Shown piece by piece: positions 9,013 through 25,385 of a stretch of DNA of 26,894 bases (the first letter of the stretch is position 1; every line of letters starts with the position of its first letter). The notes beneath the pieces were generated by a model that made no database searches, was not told where the DNA came from, and was given only the letters and a program-made list of their open reading frames with translations. A program made the translations under genes and the position numbers. The DNA comes from a bacterium (GTDB lineage: Bacteria > Zhuqueibacterota > Zhuqueibacteria > Oceanimicrobiales > Oceanimicrobiaceae), in contig DASWHH010000271.1 in the NCBI GenBank assembly GCA_036398295.1, forward strand, positions 1 to 26,894, written 5' to 3'.

Positions 9013-9170
9013 TACCATTGAGTTAGCCACGGTTTGTTTCGTATTTCAAATTTCACCCCACAAAATAAAAACTTTGCAAAAAAAGCAATGTTTTACAAAT
9101 TTGGAGTACGGATGCACGCGGATTGATGCAGTACAGCGATATATTTTTTGACCAAAGGAGAGCAGGGAGG

Positions 9171-9998
9171 GTGGACTTAAAAAAGTTTGGCATTCGAGCG
9201 CTGGTCACGATCGTTTTCGGGCCCTTCATACTGTTTTGCGCATGGAAAGGAAGTTATCTTTTTCTAGCGCTGGTAACGTCGCTGGTTGTCCTCGGCGCGG
9301 GTGAGTTTTACGGGTTGGCTGTGAAAAAAGTAACGAACCCGCAGCGAATTCTTGGTATGGTCGCGAGCGCGGCGCTTTGCCTATCGTTGTTTTTTTACGC
9401 GACGCACTATCTTTGGCTGGTATTTGCCGTTTTGGTTTTTTTTTCTGGCACCTACGAGTTGTTTCGCAATGCAGTTAATCCGATTCTAAATATCGCGGCG
9501 ACCTTGATGGGGGTACTCTGCGTGGCGTTACCCCTGAGCTTTCTCCTCCTTATCCGCGAGCTGCCGAACCAGTTCAACTTTGACTACCGGCATGGTGGCC
9601 AGATCGTGATTCTGGTTTTTCTCACCATCTGGGTTTGTGATACCATGGCGTATGTGCTGGGTTCACAGTTCGGAAAACACAAATTGTTTGAGCGGGCGAG
9701 TCCAAACAAAACCATCGAGGGAACGCTTTGTGGTTTCTTGTCCGCAGTCACGGTGGCGTGGGTCTGCCAGCAGACATTCTTAAGTCACATGAGACTTGTG
9801 GATGTGCTGGTGATCGGGGTGATTAGTGGTAGCGTGGGACAGATGAGCGATTTACTCGAATCCCTGCTTAAGCGGGACGCCGGCGTGAAAGATTCGTCGA
9901 ACCTCATTCCGGGTCACGGGGGAATTTTGGATCGTTTTGATAGTGAGATTCTCGTGGCGCCAGCCGTCTACGTTTATTTGAAGTTGGTGGTTTTTTAG
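9171..9998 (+). CDS. cdsA: Phosphatidate cytidylyltransferase
   Basis: Multi-TM protein with DTMAYVLGSQFGKHKL, SPNKTIEG and SDLLESLLKRDAGVKDSSNLIPGHGGILDRFDS. GTG 9171 follows AAGGAG/GGAGG and is preferred to the ORF-track start at 9123. Confidence 0.95.
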   Translation: MDLKKFGIRALVTIVFGPFILFCAWKGSYLFLALVTSLVVLGAGEFYGLAVKKVTNPQRILGMVASAALCLSLFFYATHYLWLVFAVLVFFSGTYELFRNAVNPILNIAATLMGVLCVALPLSFLLLIRELPNQFNFDYRHGGQIVILVFLTIWVCDTMAYVLGSQFGKHKLFERASPNKTIEGTLCGFLSAVTVAWVCQQTFLSHMRLVDVLVIGVISGSVGQMSDLLESLLKRDAGVKDSSNLIPGHGGILDRFDSEILVAPAVYVYLKLVVF

Positions 9999-9999
9999 T

Positions 10000-10947
10000 T
10001 CACACCAAAACACTTCCATCTTTTAAAATCACCCTGCCGTCAATACAAACTGTGGGTTTCAGGATCACGCCCTTGGTGGCCTGAATGATTTTGCCGTGCA
10101 CTTTGGTGATCTGATATTCGCCGATCGCGATATGCGCGGTTCCGAAGACCTTTTCATCACCAAGCTGCGAATTTCCGAAGCTCACCTGATCGTTGGTACC
10201 AATTCCTAACTCATTGATTTTGCGGCCGGCTGTGCCGTACTTGCGGATGGCCTTGCGCAGTTGCTCTGCCTCATGAGCGCCTTTAACCTGGGTGATCACA
10301 CCATTCTTGATCTTCAGGATGATCGCTTTATTGAGCGCCCTTGTCTGTCCACAAATACGATCCAGAACTACTTCGCCGTCGACGTTGTTGCTTAAGGTGA
10401 CACACGCTTCGCCGGCGGGCAGGGTTGTGAGCTGCCCGGTTTCTTTGGCAATGCCAGTGATCGCCCTGCCCTTGGTTTTAACGAGGTTAATTTTCAAATC
10501 TGTGCCACTCGGAGAGGTGAGAACCAGATTTCTTCCGATGGAAAAAATATCCGCAAGGCGGCGGCTGGCGGTAGCCACCTTATTGAGATTTATTTTAAGT
10601 AGGTGATCAAACAAATCTTGCCTGGCATTACCGAGGAGGAGAAGCCGCGTTCCCTTTTGCCGGGCCGCCTCAAAGAGGCGTTCCGAGATTATTTTTGGGC
10701 TGAGTATCACCACGCAGTCGCTATTACCTAACGAATTATAAATCGAGGGCGGCAGACCGAGATAGTTAGAAAATTGATGCGAAAAAATCGTGATTTGAGC
10801 AAACTTGGTGGCCATGCGTGCGCGTTTCCACAGCACGTCCGCCATGCCAGACAACGTCTCTTCGGCAACGATGTGCAAGGACTCATGGGGCTTGACATTC
10901 AGACAGTCCTTGAAAATGGTGCGGGCTGACTTTTCGACCTTGGTCAT
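10000..10947 (-). CDS. M29 (thermophilic metalloprotease/leucyl aminopeptidase)-like protein with a degenerate metal site
   Basis: Retains SPSGTDL, TLPAGEA, NELGIGTN, DEKVFGTAHIAIG and ILKPTVCIDG. The HxD expected just before GVILKPT reads ATK. Confidence 0.8.
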   Translation of the reverse strand: MTKVEKSARTIFKDCLNVKPHESLHIVAEETLSGMADVLWKRARMATKFAQITIFSHQFSNYLGLPPSIYNSLGNSDCVVILSPKIISERLFEAARQKGTRLLLLGNARQDLFDHLLKINLNKVATASRRLADIFSIGRNLVLTSPSGTDLKINLVKTKGRAITGIAKETGQLTTLPAGEACVTLSNNVDGEVVLDRICGQTRALNKAIILKIKNGVITQVKGAHEAEQLRKAIRKYGTAGRKINELGIGTNDQVSFGNSQLGDEKVFGTAHIAIGEYQITKVHGKIIQATKGVILKPTVCIDGRVILKDGSVLV

Positions 10948-11174
10948 ACAATTCAGGAGGTAGTGAACATCGTAAAAGGAATTATGTCGGTTTGGGCAAG
11001 GAGAAACCTGTCACGAGGGGTTCGAGAGCCAAACAAAGAAATACTCTAACCGAATGTGGATCAGATGGCAGAAGCAGGGATATCAAAAGTCCTTCGCTCT
11101 CAGTTTCCTCACCCAAAAAACATTTGCTCCTCAACTTTTCGCCTTCTTTGCCGCGCTGTCTTCCTGGACAGATG

Positions 11175-12416
11175 TTAATCCTGCAAGGCAGTATGCGCAA
11201 AGACTTTCGCATCGTCGATGATGTTTTGAATTCTAACGTATTCGTTAGGCTCGTGAAGCGTCTCGTCCTGCGTCGCCCACACCGCCGCGTTAAACCCGGC
11301 TTTTCGGAAAAACGCCGCCACTGTACCGCCGCCGATTCCCATCACTTTGGGCTTCACCCTGCGGATATCAGAAATCGCACTTTCCAGCGCCTTGACGATC
11401 GGCGCATCGATCGGCGTTGGCGGTGCGGCCCGGCCATCCAGCTCACAATTCATCTCAACCGTAGCTTGGTGGCGGCTTTCAACTTCCTGGCAGAGGCGTT
11501 TCACGTTTTCCAGGAATCGATCTATATCATAACTCGGCAGAATGCGGCAGTCAAAATAAAAAACATCCTCGCCGGGAATGGTGTTGACGTTGGGAACGTT
11601 GGCTTCCCGTTTTGTCGGCTCAAAAGTACTGGTGGGCGGATCGAACATCGGGTCGATGATGTTGTAAATCAAGTACAAGTTATTCATTTTCACAATCAAG
11701 TTGGCTGCCGCTTTGAATGCGTTCACGCCCCGTTCGGGAGTGGAGGCATGGGTGGTCTTGCCCACCACCCGGAATTTCAGCCACAGGATGCTTTTTTCTG
11801 CCACCTCGATCACCGAGCCATCGGCCACGCCGGAATCGGGGATAATGATCAAATCCTCTTTCTTGAAAATGTCTGAGTGTTTTTCCAGCAGGTATTGCAT
11901 GCCGTACCTGTTGCCGGTCTCTTCATCGGCGGCGAAGACCAGTCCAAAATCCCGGGCCGGCTGGATGCCTTCGTCGTGGAAGGCTTTGGCCGCAATCAAC
12001 GAGGACACAATTCCCTGCTGGTTGTCCTCGACGCCACGCCCGAAGATTTTGCCGTTCTCGACGCGCACTTTCCAGGGATCGCCTTGCCATGCGCTCAGGT
12101 CGCCCGGCGGCACGACGTCCATGTGGGACATAATCCATAGCGTCGGTAGTGAACTTTTTCCCTTCAGCCTGGCAACCAAATTAGGACGATAGCCGCAACT
12201 CACCCGGGAATCCGCGGCCTGGTACAGAGTTGCGTCGCAATTCAACCTGTTTTTGAAATATGACTGCAAATACTCGGCTTTTTTCAACTCACCGTCGCCG
12301 CCGTTTTCCGGGGCCAGCGCCGGGCTGGCGGTGAGATGCGTTTGAATCTCTATGATCTCGTCTTGATACGAGTCAATGCGCTTGCTGAGTTTGCCGAGTA
12401 CCGTTTTGTCGATCAT
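11175..12416 (-). CDS. M20 family metallo-hydrolase (DapE/ArgE-like peptidase or deacylase)
   Basis: SHMDVVPPG, GRGVEDNQQG, DEETG, IIPDSG, VAEK, HASTPERGVNA, NVNTIPG and a C-terminal TLHEPNE. The full ligand set appears present. Confidence 0.93.
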   Translation of the reverse strand: MIDKTVLGKLSKRIDSYQDEIIEIQTHLTASPALAPENGGDGELKKAEYLQSYFKNRLNCDATLYQAADSRVSCGYRPNLVARLKGKSSLPTLWIMSHMDVVPPGDLSAWQGDPWKVRVENGKIFGRGVEDNQQGIVSSLIAAKAFHDEGIQPARDFGLVFAADEETGNRYGMQYLLEKHSDIFKKEDLIIIPDSGVADGSVIEVAEKSILWLKFRVVGKTTHASTPERGVNAFKAAANLIVKMNNLYLIYNIIDPMFDPPTSTFEPTKREANVPNVNTIPGEDVFYFDCRILPSYDIDRFLENVKRLCQEVESRHQATVEMNCELDGRAAPPTPIDAPIVKALESAISDIRRVKPKVMGIGGGTVAAFFRKAGFNAAVWATQDETLHEPNEYVRIQNIIDDAKVFAHTALQD

Positions 12417-12430
12417 GGCTCAAGCAATTT

Positions 12431-12548
12431 GAATGTTGAATATCGAACACGGAATGCCCAAATTCGAAGCGAATATCGAATATCGAACAAGGAATGACGA
12501 ATCATGAAGTGAGAGAATTCAGAATTCGATATTTTTTGTTCGATATTC
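12431..12548. repeat. Heptamer-periodic imperfect palindromic element, copy A
   Basis: Two degenerate 39-bp units (12431-12469 and 12471-12509) built from GAAtnnn heptads, plus a 13-bp perfect inverted repeat GAATATCGAACAA (12478-12490) / TTGTTCGATATTC (12536-12548). Confidence 0.8.
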
Positions 12549-12566
12549 ATTATTTTTCTAAATCTC

Positions 12567-12601
12567 AAAAAGCCATCAGGCTTTCGATGACGCCCTGATG
12601 G
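12567..12601 (-). terminator. Candidate intrinsic terminator overlapping the MFS stop codon
   Basis: On the - strand: CCATCAGG-13 nt-CCTGATGG (8-bp stem, 12601 to 12573) followed by CTTTTT. Confidence 0.5.
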
Positions 12602-13907
12602 TTTCCAGCCCATGGGACTGGCCGCCGGTTTCGCTTTTGCGAAGTAGATAAGCGAATAGCAAGCCGAGGAATCCAAGAGTCGAGAAAATCCACATTCCCG
12701 GTGCATATCCCAATGGATTGGTTGCGCTCGCCCCGCCCAGGTCATTGGCTTTGCCGATCATCAGGTTGAAAGCAAAAAAGCCGATTTGCTGGATGAGGGT
12801 CATGAGCGCGTAAGCTGTTCCCAGCCGCTTTTCTTCAACAATGTAGGCCACCGAAGGCCACAACACCGCCGGAATGAGGGAGAAGGCAATGCCCATCATC
12901 GTCACCGGCACCCAAAGAGAGATTTGAGTGTATGCCATAATAAGATAAACTGGCATCAGTAGCAGCGAACCGATGGTCATGAGCAAAGCGCGCTTGCCTA
13001 CTCTGTCAACCATAAGCCCGAACAACGGCGTGGCAATCATCGCTGAAATTGGCAGCAGGCCGTTGAAAAAGCCGGCAGCCTCGCGCGCCTGATCCGCGGG
13101 CAGAGCGGCAAAATGGGTGTCCATAAAGAATTTGATGGCGAAAGTTCGGAACGGGAAGATGGCCGAGTAAAAGGCCAGACACAGGCCTACGATCAGCCAA
13201 TAGGAGTAGTTGAACTTAAAAATCTGCGAGAAGTCCAGCTTGTCGATGGCGCCCGCACTACCCAGACTGAACCGCCGCTCTGCCTGATTTTCGAGCCACC
13301 AGTAAATGAAGGCACCAACCAGTCCGATGATGCCGGCGCCCACGGACAACACCAGGGGACCCTGCCAGCTTGGGTCCGCTTCAGGACCATGGGGATAGAA
13401 AATGCTGCCCGCCCACGAGGGGGAGTTGTCGGCAGCGACGGACGCAAGTCGTGCGATAGTCAAATTCACGCCGAAAGCAAAGCTCAGCTCTTTGCCTTTG
13501 AACCATTTCGCCAGTGCGGTGGTTACGGCGACGATGAGAGATTCAGCGCCCAGGCCCAGGACCACACGTCCCACGATGATCGGGCCAAAGCTGCCCTTTA
13601 ACCCTGTTAGCACCGCCCCGATGAGGCACAGTAGCGAGAAAACCGTGATGGCTTTTTTGGTGCCGATGCGATCGATGATGATGCCCCCGATGAGCAGAGT
13701 CAGCAAAGCAGCAATGCTGTAGCTGGCGTTGAGCCAGCCGATGTCGCTGTCGGTGAAACCAAGCTGCTTGGTGAAAATATCAACCAGCGGATTGATGCTG
13801 TCATAAATGTAGTAGTTCCCAAACATTGGGAGACTGACAAACAGCAGTACGATCCATCTAAATGCAACGGATGGTTGTGGCCGATCTTGCAGGTCTGGGT
13901 TATTCAT
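12576..13907 (-). CDS. MFS transporter, MFSD1-like (putative dipeptide transporter)
   Basis: About 12-TM MFS layout with GGIIIDRIG and FGLMVDRVGKR. Shares FGNYYIYD, GRVVLGLGAESL, WFKGKEL, ARL, YSAIFPF and LWPSVAYIVEEKRLGTAY with eukaryotic MFSD1 as I recall its sequence. Confidence 0.9.
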   Translation of the reverse strand: MNNPDLQDRPQPSVAFRWIVLLFVSLPMFGNYYIYDSINPLVDIFTKQLGFTDSDIGWLNASYSIAALLTLLIGGIIIDRIGTKKAITVFSLLCLIGAVLTGLKGSFGPIIVGRVVLGLGAESLIVAVTTALAKWFKGKELSFAFGVNLTIARLASVAADNSPSWAGSIFYPHGPEADPSWQGPLVLSVGAGIIGLVGAFIYWWLENQAERRFSLGSAGAIDKLDFSQIFKFNYSYWLIVGLCLAFYSAIFPFRTFAIKFFMDTHFAALPADQAREAAGFFNGLLPISAMIATPLFGLMVDRVGKRALLMTIGSLLLMPVYLIMAYTQISLWVPVTMMGIAFSLIPAVLWPSVAYIVEEKRLGTAYALMTLIQQIGFFAFNLMIGKANDLGGASATNPLGYAPGMWIFSTLGFLGLLFAYLLRKSETGGQSHGLETIRASSKA

Positions 13908-13961
13908 TCATCTTCTTTTTTAATGTTTCTGAGCGCTCCTTCATGCGCTGATCAGCAGCGA

Positions 13962-16136
13962 TCACAGTTTGGTTTCAACAGGCTTTTTTGCATAGTAGTA
14001 CAAAGAAGCCGCCAAGAGCACAAACATCACTACCGCAAAGAGGTTGCTCTGTGCCAGCCCACCTAAAAGCTTTGGACCAAATGCCAGTACGCCTGCTGGC
14101 AGCAACTTGACGCCGAGCTCGGGGTCGCCGAGCACATTGATAACGATACCCAATAAGCCAATGACGCCACCGGCGGCGATTAACCCGCTCGAGTAGAGGG
14201 AACCCGGGCTCACCTCGCTTTCCGCGTGACCGCCCGCGGAACTTTGCTTTCCGCGGTTGACAAGCCAATGGACGATGCCGCCACAGAAAATCGCGAGCGT
14301 GGTGTGGAGTCCGAGGTAAGATCCCACTGCAAAAGAGAGAGAGCGAATTCCCAGCAATTCGACCGCCGCAACCAGGAAAACACCAAGCATCACCAACCGC
14401 CACGGCAGGCGTTGGTTCAGGATGCCGTTGATAACCGTGGCCATCAGGCGAGCCTGCGGCGCAGCGGCTTTATCACTGCCTATGCCCTGAATCCATTGAA
14501 TTTCAATCTGTCCTGTTGACGAGTCGTATAAATACTTGCCGTCTGGCACTTCGGGTGAGCCAAGGGCGTTAATCAGGATGTATGGTTTACTCTTGTATTC
14601 GTAACTTTCTTTCTCCACTTTGACTCCGCCCTCTTCGGCGCGCGCGGCTTCGATGTTTAGTGGCAGCTGCATGGGTTTGTATTCGGAGAGGCCAACGTTC
14701 ATCAGGATGAGCGTACCGCCAATGACAAACACGCTGACCAGTACACCGATAATCAGCGCCACCTGCTGCAGGTACGGCGTGGCACCGACAAGATAGCCGG
14801 TCTTCAAGTCTTGAGAGGTGGCGCCGGCATTGGCGGCCGCGACGCAAACCACCCCGCCGATGGTGATCGCCAGTGCGGAGTAGGCTGCCGCAGTCCAGCC
14901 CATGACTAAGAACATGGCGCACGTGGCCATGAGCGTGGCGATAGTCATCCCGCTCACAGGATTGGCCGACGTGCCAATCAGTCCGCAAATTCGCGACGAC
15001 ACGGTGACGAAAAGAAATCCGAAAATCACGACAAAAATACCGGCGACGATATTTTCAAACCAGGTCGTGCTCGCACCCGGTACCGGCATGAAGGTCAATA
15101 TCGCCCACATCATCACTACAATGCCGAGTGACCCGAAGATCACCCATTTCATTGAAAGGTCGCGTTCGTTGCGAGCGGAGCCGACTTCCTCGCCGGACTT
15201 CTGAGCGCGCACGTCCTTGAGGCCGGCCTTGAGCGCCGAAACGATGGTGGGCATGGTCTTCAATAAGGTGATGAGTCCCGCTGCAGCTACGGCGCCGGCG
15301 CCCATCGGACGAATGTAGCTCGCCCACAGTTGATCGGGATTCATGTCTGGAATCGGAATCGTACTGGGATAAAGCGCAAGGCCCGGTGCGAGCGACCCGA
15401 AGAATTTGATAGCCGGCATTAACACCAGCCATGAGAAAACGCCGCCGGCGAAAATCGTCCCCGCCACTCGCGGCCCGATGATATAGCCTACCCCCAAATA
15501 CTCGGAGGTGATCTCCGCACGAAACGACGCCCCGGGCAACCAGTTTGGCTCATAGCGTGGCCGTGAAATCCAGGCGTTTGCAATTGCCATCATGAACGTA
15601 TAGATTCCGCCGAGTCCCAGTCCCAGAAAAACCCGTCCAGCGAAGGAGCCGCCGCGTTCACCAGCGATCAGTACATCGGCGCAAGCCGTACCTTCGGGGT
15701 AGAGCAGGTTGCCGTGCTCTTTCACGATGAGTTGCCGGCGCAAGGGTATCATGAACAGCACTCCTAAAGTGCCGCCGATCAAAGCCAGCAGGAATATGCG
15801 GGTGTATTCGAGTGGGAAGCCGAGAAAGATCAATGCCGGGAGGGTGAAGATGACACCGGCGGCCACCGACTCGCCGGCCGAGCCGGCGGTCTGGACGATG
15901 TTATTCTCCAGGATGGTTGCTTTGCCGAACGCACGCAGGATACTGATGGAGAGCACCGCGATCGGGATGGACGCGCTCACGGTAAGGCCGGCGCGCAGAC
16001 CAACGTACACCGTCACGGCGCCGAATAGAATTCCGAACAAGGCCCCCAACAAAATTGCCTTCAGGGTGAATTCCGAAACGGTCATCTCCGCGGGAATGAA
16101 CGGCTTAAAGTCGGTGGATGTTTTGTTTCCAGCCAT
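13962..16136 (-). CDS. OPT family oligopeptide transporter (YSL-like/bacterial branch)
   Basis: VYVGLRAGLTVSASIPIAV, ILENNIVQTAGSAGESVAAG, YPEGTACA, GSANPVSGMTI-like SANPVSGMTIATL, SQDLKTGYLVGATP, APQARLM and SGLIAAG. Confidence 0.96.
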   Translation of the reverse strand: MAGNKTSTDFKPFIPAEMTVSEFTLKAILLGALFGILFGAVTVYVGLRAGLTVSASIPIAVLSISILRAFGKATILENNIVQTAGSAGESVAAGVIFTLPALIFLGFPLEYTRIFLLALIGGTLGVLFMIPLRRQLIVKEHGNLLYPEGTACADVLIAGERGGSFAGRVFLGLGLGGIYTFMMAIANAWISRPRYEPNWLPGASFRAEITSEYLGVGYIIGPRVAGTIFAGGVFSWLVLMPAIKFFGSLAPGLALYPSTIPIPDMNPDQLWASYIRPMGAGAVAAAGLITLLKTMPTIVSALKAGLKDVRAQKSGEEVGSARNERDLSMKWVIFGSLGIVVMMWAILTFMPVPGASTTWFENIVAGIFVVIFGFLFVTVSSRICGLIGTSANPVSGMTIATLMATCAMFLVMGWTAAAYSALAITIGGVVCVAAANAGATSQDLKTGYLVGATPYLQQVALIIGVLVSVFVIGGTLILMNVGLSEYKPMQLPLNIEAARAEEGGVKVEKESYEYKSKPYILINALGSPEVPDGKYLYDSSTGQIEIQWIQGIGSDKAAAPQARLMATVINGILNQRLPWRLVMLGVFLVAAVELLGIRSLSFAVGSYLGLHTTLAIFCGGIVHWLVNRGKQSSAGGHAESEVSPGSLYSSGLIAAGGVIGLLGIVINVLGDPELGVKLLPAGVLAFGPKLLGGLAQSNLFAVVMFVLLAASLYYYAKKPVETKL

Positions 16137-16194
16137 AGATACTCCCTCGCATTTGGTTTGATCAAATATGATCCGTGGGTGTTTTGACCTTAGT

Positions 16195-16260
16195 GTAGGG
16201 GGAACATCTGGCCTACCATCGGATTGCCAATGGGCTTTCCTCCCTTCCGAAACGTAGGAT
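16195..16260 (-). promoter_or_regulatory. Structured segment in the roughly 200-nt 5' leader of the OPT gene (candidate cis-regulatory RNA)
   Basis: CCAUUGG-CAAU-CCGAUGG hairpin enclosed by CCUAC/GUAGG, with a second CCUAC and a UUCCCCCU tract downstream that allow alternative pairings. It matches no riboswitch class I recognise. Confidence 0.35.
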
Positions 16261-16341
16261 TGAAAAATGAGATGCTAAATGTTAATAGACAGAGAATAGA
16301 AAAGAATTCACTCGCGAGCCCCTCCGGCAATACAGCCCATG

Positions 16342-16370
16342 AACATAAAAGAAATGAACTAAAAAGTCAA
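16342..16370 (-). promoter_or_regulatory. Sigma70-type promoter for the OPT-MFS(-M20-M29) cluster
   Basis: On the - strand: TTGACT (16370-16365), a 17-nt spacer, then TATGTT (16347-16342). Confidence 0.6.
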
Positions 16371-16466: not shown

Positions 16467-17267
16467 GTGGCCTTTCTAAAAGACATAACTTTAGGTCAGT
16501 ATTTTCCAGGAGACTCGTTTCTCCATCGTCTGGATCCGCGCAGCAAGCTCTTGGCGAGTCTGGCTCTCATGACCAGCCTGTTGATTTCGACAAAATTGAG
16601 CCTGATCTTGCTGCAGTCCGCCGCGGTGCTGGTGACGATTTGGTTGACGAAGATTCCAATGACCATGATCGCCAAGAGCCTGAAATGGTTTCTATGGCTT
16701 TTCCTGATCACATTTGCGATTCATGTTTTAGAAGTAAGCATCGGTTCCGTTTTTCCGTTTTTGAGTTTTGGTGTCCGTGCAGCGGGAATCATGAACGGAG
16801 CAATTTATACACTGCGACTGGGACTCTTGATCGTCACGGCGTCGTTGTTGACGTTGACCACCTCGCCCATCGAATTGACCGACAGCCTCGAACGGCTGTT
16901 TTCGCCGTTGAAGCGATTGAGAGTGCCCGTGCATGAACTGGCTCTGATGATGACGCTGTCACTGCGATTTATACCGATTCTAATTCGTGAGGCCGAGCGC
17001 ATTAAGAACGCCCAGTTGTCGCGAGGGGCATCGCTGGAAGGCAACCTCCTGCAACGAATTCGCAACCTGGTTCCGATGTTGCTGCCTTTGTTTATCTCGG
17101 CCATTCGCCGGGCGGACGACCTGGCGGTGGCAATGGAGGCGCGCTGCTACGCTGGTGGTGAAGGGCGGACCTGCTTTCATCGGTTTGCGTTTGGCGTCGG
17201 CGATGTCGGCTTACTGCTGTTTTCGGGTGCCTGGTTCTTTGGAATTTTAGTTGTTAATTACGGTTAG
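16467..17267 (+). CDS. ecfT: Energy-coupling factor transporter transmembrane component T
   Basis: ITLGQYFPGDSFLHRLDPRSKL, TTSPIELTDSLE, LSLRFIPIL and the two X-R-X coupling motifs AQLSRGA and AMEARCY. Confidence 0.95.
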   Translation: MAFLKDITLGQYFPGDSFLHRLDPRSKLLASLALMTSLLISTKLSLILLQSAAVLVTIWLTKIPMTMIAKSLKWFLWLFLITFAIHVLEVSIGSVFPFLSFGVRAAGIMNGAIYTLRLGLLIVTASLLTLTTSPIELTDSLERLFSPLKRLRVPVHELALMMTLSLRFIPILIREAERIKNAQLSRGASLEGNLLQRIRNLVPMLLPLFISAIRRADDLAVAMEARCYAGGEGRTCFHRFAFGVGDVGLLLFSGAWFFGILVVNYG

Positions 17268-25328: not shown

Positions 25329-25385
25329 GAATATCGAATTTCGAACAAGGAATAACAAATTTCGAAGTTCGATATTTTTGTCGAT
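25329..25385. repeat. Heptamer-periodic element, copy B
   Basis: gaatatc gaatttc gaacaag gaataac aaatttc gaag (25329-25367) is the same 39-bp unit as at 12431 and 12471. It is followed by a shortened inverted arm, TTCGATATTTTTGTCGAT. Confidence 0.75.

Follow-up and report, generated by a model that had tools for sequence, protein, structure and literature searches.

Do four adjacent genes of a candidate division KSB1 bacterium, two for transporters and two for proteins of peptidase families, together form a system for the uptake and breakdown of peptides? The genes lie on contig DASWHH010000271.1 of the assembly GCA_036398295.1, which was analysed over its full 26,894 nucleotides and is referred to here as the window. 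Positions 10000 to 16136 are filled by four minus-strand genes, encoding in order of reading an OPT-family transporter (13962..16136; 724 amino acids), a major facilitator superfamily (MFS) carrier (12576..13907; 443 aa), an M20 family metallohydrolase (11175..12416; 413 aa) and an M29-like protein (10000..10947; 315 aa). An earlier note on this DNA had given the same gene content, order, strand, coordinates and flanking genes (cdsA and ecfT), all of which are confirmed by family-model matches and gene calls, and had proposed that the cluster represents an ABC-independent peptide scavenging pathway expressed from a single promoter. The source genome is a metagenome-assembled genome (MAG) of 678 contigs and 75% completeness, in which the window constitutes contig C271. 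The nearest named relatives of the window proteins are found in candidate division KSB1 bacteria, and a syntenic locus was found in Candidatus Zhuqueibacter pondensis.

We suggest, with a probability of roughly 0.62, that the locus serves a KSB1 bacterium in importing and breaking down peptides, and that it represents a genus-specific variant of a more widely conserved module. The OPT-family protein would import oligopeptides, as its family and its recurrent peptidase neighbours indicate, and the MFS protein, which resembles the lysosomal carrier MFSD1, would move dipeptides, as indicated by a conserved Glu/Arg clamp. The M20 enzyme, presumably cytoplasmic, is the sole predicted competent hydrolase and probably cleaves di- or tripeptides, or N-acyl amino acids, with the M29-like protein most likely serving as a non-canonical partner, either a peptide-binding protein or a one-metal enzyme. 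A role in peptide utilization is favoured because the gene families recur together across phyla, peptidases of four unrelated kinds are found beside the transporters, the dipeptide clamp is retained in the MFS carrier and precedents exist for peptide uptake by bacterial OPT proteins.

The genomic context was compared in 40 relatives of the same class, with gene calls from a simple open reading frame (ORF) picker. Of the 38 KSB1 genomes in which an M29-like gene was matched (window genome included), at least 23 have an OPT gene located within ~4 kb of it, a count of same-contig matches that forms a lower bound, as weak matches are incompletely listed. Between pyrK-pyrD-cdsA and ecfT-truA-transaldolase-HtrA, the position occupied by the cluster in the window, an M29-like gene, an M20 gene, a gene of ~113 codons and an OPT gene are found in nine genomes from this family and in one from a second family within the order. 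Six genomes from four families further removed have an M29-like gene, the small gene and an OPT gene there, two of them with one gene more. The small gene encodes a PqqD-like protein (PF05402), and KSB1 genomes usually have the layout OPT, PqqD-like, (M20), M29-like here. Position and order (cdsA > < M29-like-M20-PqqD-OPT / ecfT-truA >) are conserved in 20 loci of KSB1. Outside KSB1, a profile built from the 317-aa M29-like family retrieved 80 loci, of which fifteen contain an OPT gene, nearly always directly upstream and on the same strand. These fifteen belong to Zixibacteria, Ignavibacteriota, Gemmatimonadota, Eisenbacteria, Acidobacteriota and Bacillota (a Pelosinus MAG). With a few OPT genes per genome, adjacency by chance would be expected near 1%; the OPT transporter and the M29-like protein therefore form the core pair of the module, with the PqqD-like protein, the M20 enzyme and the MFS carrier as accessory members. 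An absence of co-occurrence in other genomes, which the earlier note had named as grounds for abandoning its proposal, is thus contradicted both within KSB1 and beyond it.

The cluster of the window is a genus-specific variant of this OPT-PqqD-(M20)-M29-like module, in which the MFS gene occupies the place of the PqqD-like gene. No PqqD-like gene was detected by tblastn in the window or in the corresponding locus of the sister species, nor by profile search in the window genome or the 97%-complete sister genome, where a control genome scores 6e-51. Elsewhere the PqqD-like protein is a stand-alone product of ~110-150 aa, encoded between the OPT and hydrolase genes with no maturase nearby in most KSB1 relatives and some other phyla (for example L027:5440-5781, L043:5652-5993, L044:5344-5691 and L134:4939-5388, given as locus and positions, and 13 more relatives).

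The MFS gene is also found beside OPT in more distant genomes. A Melioribacteraceae locus has the order OPT-MFS-PqqD-x-M29-like, and in the closest metagenome relative (L132:2-5361) the OPT (77% amino acid identity) and MFS (80%) genes are followed by one for a 755-aa S9 family dipeptidyl peptidase IV (DPP IV), which replaces the M20 and M29-like genes. OPT-MFS thus looks like a recurrent two-gene unit. Peptidases of four unrelated kinds, namely the PRK13983-type M20, a 487-aa M20, the S9 DPP IV and the M29-like protein, recur beside OPT or MFS, and the substrate is for this reason more plausibly a peptide than a metal chelate, as the earlier note had argued from the peptidase context of the window by itself.

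In a phmmer search, residues 14-393 of the MFS protein match residues 38-416 of the MFSD1 chain 8r8q_A with an e-value of 2.3e-44, the next best match in the PDB being NorA (e-value: 3e-6). As judged from this alignment, the protein is a true homolog of MFSD1, and the likeness noticed earlier holds down to the residues of the dipeptide clamp. In the lysosomal dipeptide uniporter MFSD1, both termini of the peptide are gripped by Glu150 and Arg181, which sets the selectivity for length (PMC11252000; also PMC10990142). These residues align with E122 and R153 of the window protein, and MFSD1 residues Y56, Y59, D60, Y276, F280, W373 and Q396 align with Y32, Y35, D36, Y247, F251, W350 and Q373. The clamp and all seven other residues are invariant in 29/29 bacterial homologs, down to 36% identity. 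Relative to the MFSD1-GLMP complex (PDB 8r8q), ~380 residues of homology, including the clamp and the seven further residues, are common to both, whereas the window protein is a predicted bacterial inner-membrane carrier (12576..13907; MFS_1: 136 bits) without a GLMP partner, encoded together with an OPT transporter and hydrolases. Furthermore, the window protein has T, N, F, T, Q and F, respectively, in place of N157, Q176, Y365, Q393, N397 and L400 of MFSD1.

Four of the 80 metagenome relatives of the MFS protein, and these the closest (73-80% identity), have peptide-related neighbours, namely OPT-MFS-DPP IV, OPT-PqqD-M20-MFS-M29-like (with the 487-aa M20) and, twice, MFS-M29-like; none of the remaining 76 has such neighbours. 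MFS relatives from other KSB1 families adjoin unrelated genes, for a Na/H exchanger, folate or queuosine enzymes, or a TonB receptor, and thus offer no clue to function. Between the two congeneric species the MFS proteins share 56-60% identity (window 12576-13907 versus L024:9611-10954), compared with 77-92% for the products of flanking genes. In a FastTree phylogeny the window protein groups with that of L132 and the sister protein with the Melioribacteraceae copy, so that the two are not nearest relatives, suggesting that the MFS gene may have been replaced in place in one lineage. No match above cut-off to the POT/PTR2 family (PF00854) was found in the window genome or in the 97%-complete sister genome and, as no POT-family carrier was found in the genus, the MFSD1-like carrier probably fills this role. 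The window genome does encode a family-5 solute-binding protein, and the description of the pathway as ABC-independent therefore holds for these four genes and does not extend to the genome.

The OPT protein is a full-length member of its family, with matches above the curated cut-offs to both PF03169 (293 bits; cut-off 25.8) and TIGR00733 (324 bits; cut-off 182.5), the latter in two stretches owing to an insertion of 68 aa. A crude 19-residue hydropathy scan gives 20 partly overlapping peaks, where the family has 16, rarely 17, transmembrane segments. The insertion is hydrophilic, follows a transmembrane helix (residues ~484-551; window 14484-14687) and is restricted to the OPT of this genus, where it is well conserved between both species; it is absent from nine other aligned OPT proteins, including the nearest subclade members. 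The protein is 92% identical to that of the sister species and belongs to a well-supported subclade of six in a quick tree with long branches, at identities of 57-64%. Besides the window protein and its counterpart in the sister species, the subclade takes in proteins of a Melioribacteraceae MAG, of one more MAG and of two genomes from a different KSB1 family. The OPT proteins that other genera of the family encode at this position lie outside the subclade and are only 35-40% identical to the window protein, and the tree supports membership of the subclade and not a donor. Two further OPT paralogs are encoded in the window genome, on contigs C314 and C664. A sequence search of the PDB retrieved no solved OPT structure.

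Genetic precedents exist for peptide uptake by bacterial members of the family (TIGR00733, PF03169). In Porphyromonas gingivalis, dipeptide uptake is impaired in delta-opt and delta-pot mutants, with uptake of several dipeptides reduced in the delta-opt strain, and a mutant lacking both genes hardly grows (PMC8048996); that species likewise has an MFS dipeptide carrier and DPP enzymes alongside its OPT, with the difference that the MFS partner in the window is MFSD1-like and not a POT. CptA of Campylobacter jejuni is described, in a citation within PMC7340319, as an OPT protein taking up Cys-Gly. The window OPT differs from these known bacterial proteins in its genus-specific loop insertion. 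A survey of the family in 2011 predicted peptide substrates for prokaryotic members from their peptidase neighbours (PMC3061005), and the neighbourhood in the window resembles those on which that prediction was based; a term search of the survey finds no PqqD-like, PRK13983-type M20 or M29-like partners.

The M20 protein is a full-length match to the equivalog model NF010589 (PRK13983 type; 557 bits; cut-off 333) and also matches PF01546 (121 bits), the dimerisation domain PF07687 (71 bits) and the ArgE/DapE subfamily model TIGR01910 (261 bits). Its nearest solved relatives are DapE enzymes (e-value: 3e-19). Residues H98 (in HxDVV), D131, E165/E166, D194 and H388, which we take from DapE numbering to be the metal ligands and catalytic residues, are invariant in 13 orthologs. 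The catalytic motifs and the di-metal site thus appear complete, and the hydrolase function given to this protein by the earlier note is in agreement with the sequence. The equivalog match, the metal-binding and catalytic motifs and the dimerisation domain are shared with the ArgE/DapE deacylases (NF010589, TIGR01910; 7uoi, 3ic1), but the gene is found in a context of peptide transport and not of lysine or arginine biosynthesis. The library description of NF010589 assigns no substrate to any member, and PRK13983 is not mentioned in the literature searched. On inspection of the sequences, no signal peptide is evident at the N-terminus of the M20 or the M29-like protein, suggesting that both are presumably cytoplasmic.

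The M29-like protein, here termed M29L-B, reaches the cut-off of the aminopeptidase model PF02073 over part of its length (32.3 bits; cut-off 27), and the profile of its family matches NicX (e-value: 4e-21) and PepS (2e-10), as well as AmpS and AmpT. An AF2 model (pLDDT 89.7; pTM 0.86) was compared by Foldseek and gave TM-scores of 0.83 to NicX (e-value: 6e-24), 0.61-0.68 to PepS, AmpT and AmpS (1e-15 to PepS and AmpT) and 0.56-0.58 to the crocagin proteins CgnE and CgnB. On this model, the protein is predicted to have the M29/NicX fold. In CgnB, the first zinc is bound by Glu252, Glu274 and His280 and the second by Glu252, His291 and Asp293, with Glu161 as a further ligand (PMC10070186). By homology to CgnB (PMC10070186) and alignment to NicX, M29L-B retains E180, E246, E265 and H272, matching the Glu/Glu/Glu/His ligands of M29 aminopeptidases, NicX, CgnB and CgnE, whereas the His-x-Asp of the second site reads A290-T-K292. 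M29L-B is, furthermore, ~100 residues shorter than the M29 aminopeptidases. A canonical M29 aminopeptidase was rejected as an identification since the His-x-Asp is missing, and a NicX-type 2,5-dihydroxypyridine dioxygenase since the 'cHLD' Fe(II) motif of NicX aligns with the same A-T-K.

The ligand pattern of the window protein, EEEHAK, compares with EEEHHD in 81/100 relatives. The protein falls in a clade of 15 members (FastTree support 0.85), all of which lack the His/Asp pair, with the Asp replaced by Lys or Arg; a ligand of the first zinc is missing as well in six of them. All fifteen are encoded in clusters with a PRK13983-type M20, and clusters with only the intact M29-like type have no M20. 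One KSB1 family carries the M20 gene, then an intact M29-like copy and then a ligand-poor one. Such tandem paralogs beside M20 were observed in L045:4786-6866, L046:5640-7961, L063:7836-9935 and L069:7839-9925, one copy having the full EEEHHD set and the other reading REEH-x-R, a damaged second copy as for CgnB and CgnE. The dN/dS ratio against the sister species is 0.10 for the M29-like gene and 0.11 for M20, with dS near saturation. Given the ligand-poor clade, its constant link with M20 and this low ratio, the pattern of substitution indicates that the M29-like gene is maintained with a changed function and is not decaying. The earlier note took this protein to hydrolyse peptides; a working aminopeptidase is consequently not to be assumed for it.

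In crocagin-type clusters, metal ligands have been lost time and again from duplicated M29-fold copies, which serve there to bind peptides (PMC10070186). In a close parallel, M29L-B belongs to a line of paralogs with a damaged metal site, found in tandem with an intact copy in relatives, although the damage is in site 2 where CgnE has lost site 1, and the protein is linked with an M20 hydrolase outside any context of peptides made by the ribosome and modified after translation (RiPPs). As a tentative proposal, on which we place little weight, the ligand-poor M29L-B may be a non-catalytic, peptide-binding partner of the PRK13983-type M20 enzyme, analogous to CgnE, that hands imported peptides to it; in this genus, the pair and the MFSD1-type uniporter would then replace the arrangement of a PqqD-like protein and an M29 aminopeptidase in the ancestral OPT module.

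The cluster might handle one specific small peptide-like compound, such as an N-acylated amino acid, a gamma-glutamyl or cell-wall peptide, glutathione or Cys-Gly, with OPT and MFS as importers and M20 removing the acyl or amino-acid group. The membership of M20 in the ArgE/DapE deacylase subfamily and its DapE-like nearest solved relatives would fit such a role, as would the range of known OPT substrates, which include glutathione (PMC3061005), folates (PMC12687453), peptidoglycan fragments in the case of Candida Opt4 (PMC12284242) and Cys-Gly for CptA, as cited in PMC7340319. The PqqD-like peptide-recognition protein of the usual module also hints at a particular peptide. MFSD1 is, however, promiscuous among dipeptides (PMC11252000), and its clamp residues are conserved in the window carrier. 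In relatives, moreover, OPT or MFS is accompanied by peptidases of varied and general kinds (DPP IV, the 487-aa M20 and M29-like proteins with a full site), and no gene for a gamma-glutamyl-transferase, an amidase or cell-wall recycling lies beside the cluster in the window. As such, we regard dedication to a single compound as unlikely, and favour the more general role in peptide import and breakdown.

The minus-strand region upstream of OPT (16137..16370) comprises a promoter-like site and a leader of ~200 nt. The site, TTGACT-17-TATGTT at 16370-16342, is located 206 nt upstream of the OPT start and matches at 9/12 positions; both hexamers are identical in the sister species, with varying flanking bases. 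Transcription probably starts here, though seven promoter-like sites were found in the region against 5.4 expected from shuffled sequences, which is no enrichment. The 'one clear sigma70 promoter' of the earlier note is thus confirmed in part, as a promoter-like site, and its control of all four window genes is unproven.

Within the leader (16137-16345), the two species share a 25-nt block without a difference, and the minimum-energy folds of both show it paired with the Shine-Dalgarno region, where folding z-scores of +1.09 and -1.05 give no signal of stability. Outside this genus the leader motif was found in none of the fetched loci, and it occurs as a single copy in its own genome. A known riboswitch or T-box was ruled out for the leader because an Rfam scan of the whole window gave no match at e-values up to 1.

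The spacers from OPT to the M29-like gene measure 54, 159 and 227 nt in the window and 46, 12 and 12 nt in the sister species, where a four-gene operon is likely on account of the short distances. The stop codon of the MFS gene lies inside a weak hairpin that is followed by a run of T (12591-12572). The MFS-M20 spacer (12417..12575) is made up of a dispersed repeat of ~40 nt in direct and inverted copies, with ~50 matches on ~36 contigs of its own genome, which looks like a REP or MITE-like intergenic element. Copies are situated at 12431-12554 and 25329-25368, with a core like GAATATCGAACA.GGAATG. An ORF of 110 codons at 12413-12745, overlapping the end of the MFS gene, was considered as a PqqD-like remnant and rejected, as it is derived from the repeat and has no Pfam match. 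The 227-nt spacer between M20 and the M29-like gene (10948..11174) is of unique sequence, with no second copy in its own genome.

The two longer spacers, the repeat element and the weak terminator-like hairpin could be taken to indicate that the four genes are mere neighbours without a shared function, as could the low identity of the MFS proteins of the two species and the location of MFS relatives elsewhere in the genomes of other KSB1 families. Such a chance assembly is nevertheless very improbable, given that these gene families are found side by side again in several orders and many phyla, that the sister species packs the four genes closely and that all four are under purifying selection, as determined from dN/dS against that species.

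A poor fit is also given by a RiPP-like, peptide-modifying pathway marked by the M29-fold and PqqD-like proteins, with OPT or MFS as an exporter and no role in feeding. The structural match of M29L-B to the peptide-binding M29-fold proteins CgnE and CgnB, the tandem intact and damaged copies in relatives, which recall crocagin-type clusters (PMC10070186), and the nature of PqqD-like proteins as binders of leader peptides are consistent with it. The window, however, has no PqqD-like gene, and no radical-SAM enzyme, dioxygenase or precursor-like gene is present in or beside the cluster, which lies among housekeeping genes at a position conserved across the class. In addition, all characterized OPT proteins are importers (PMC3061005), and the full aminopeptidase-type metal site is present in 81/100 members of the M29-like family, making such a pathway highly improbable. 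Import by OPT of a metal chelate, as in the YSL carriers, with hydrolases that free the metal from a peptide-like chelator or are unrelated, could draw on the family tree, where prokaryotic OPT proteins are placed within the iron-siderophore subdivision (PMC3061005), and on the TonB-dependent receptor that follows the cluster in the relative L134, but can hardly be sustained. On the grounds of gene context, that survey attributed peptide transport to many prokaryotic members (PMC3061005), the partners retained from phylum to phylum are proteins of peptidase families and an MFS carrier of the dipeptide type, and the window showed no gene for metal uptake or siderophores.

Several points weigh against peptide import and breakdown as the function of the locus. 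MFSD1 is a uniporter, and homology to it leaves the direction of net flux unfixed. The M20 enzyme is of an ArgE/DapE-like deacylase type without an assigned substrate and may not act on ordinary peptides. Prokaryotic OPT proteins group with the plant iron-chelate branch of the family and not with the characterized fungal peptide carriers (PMC3061005). The long spacers, the hairpin with its T run and the repeat may split the window cluster into two or three transcripts, the source genome is incomplete, and import and hydrolysis alike are predicted from context and homology. The peptide-scavenging scheme of the earlier note is supported by the co-occurrence of genes, MFSD1 homology, intact M20 and varied peptidase neighbours, and requires revision in that the M29-like protein is unlikely to be a standard aminopeptidase, the cluster is a variant of a PqqD-containing module and the single promoter is unproven.

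The genes flanking the cluster are those of the conserved position. The ecfT gene (16467-17267) begins an ecfT-truA pair that diverges upstream of OPT, and cdsA (9123-9998) converges with the M29-like gene, the two stop codons (window 9996-10002) lying 1 nt apart with no terminator-like site between them. No other ORF of the interval 10000-16136, antisense and overlapping ORFs included, has a Pfam match.

Bacterial OPT carriers are common and almost uncharacterized, and the locus described here, together with its relatives, provides a clean, recurrent context from which substrates can be chosen. The presence of a bacterial homolog of the recently deorphanised lysosomal MFSD1 in a predicted peptide-catabolism cluster, with its clamp intact, makes the origin and the mechanism of this carrier type testable in a simple system. 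The conserved, ligand-deficient M29-fold protein, which is under selection and tied to one type of M20, represents a candidate enzyme/pseudo-enzyme pair. If M29L-B does act as a binding partner of M20, the locus would hold the first bacterial MFSD1-type dipeptide carrier and a new enzyme/pseudo-enzyme pair in peptide catabolism. To our knowledge KSB1 has no cultured members and, as regards the ecology of the division, the locus speaks for peptide scavenging as one of its core traits.

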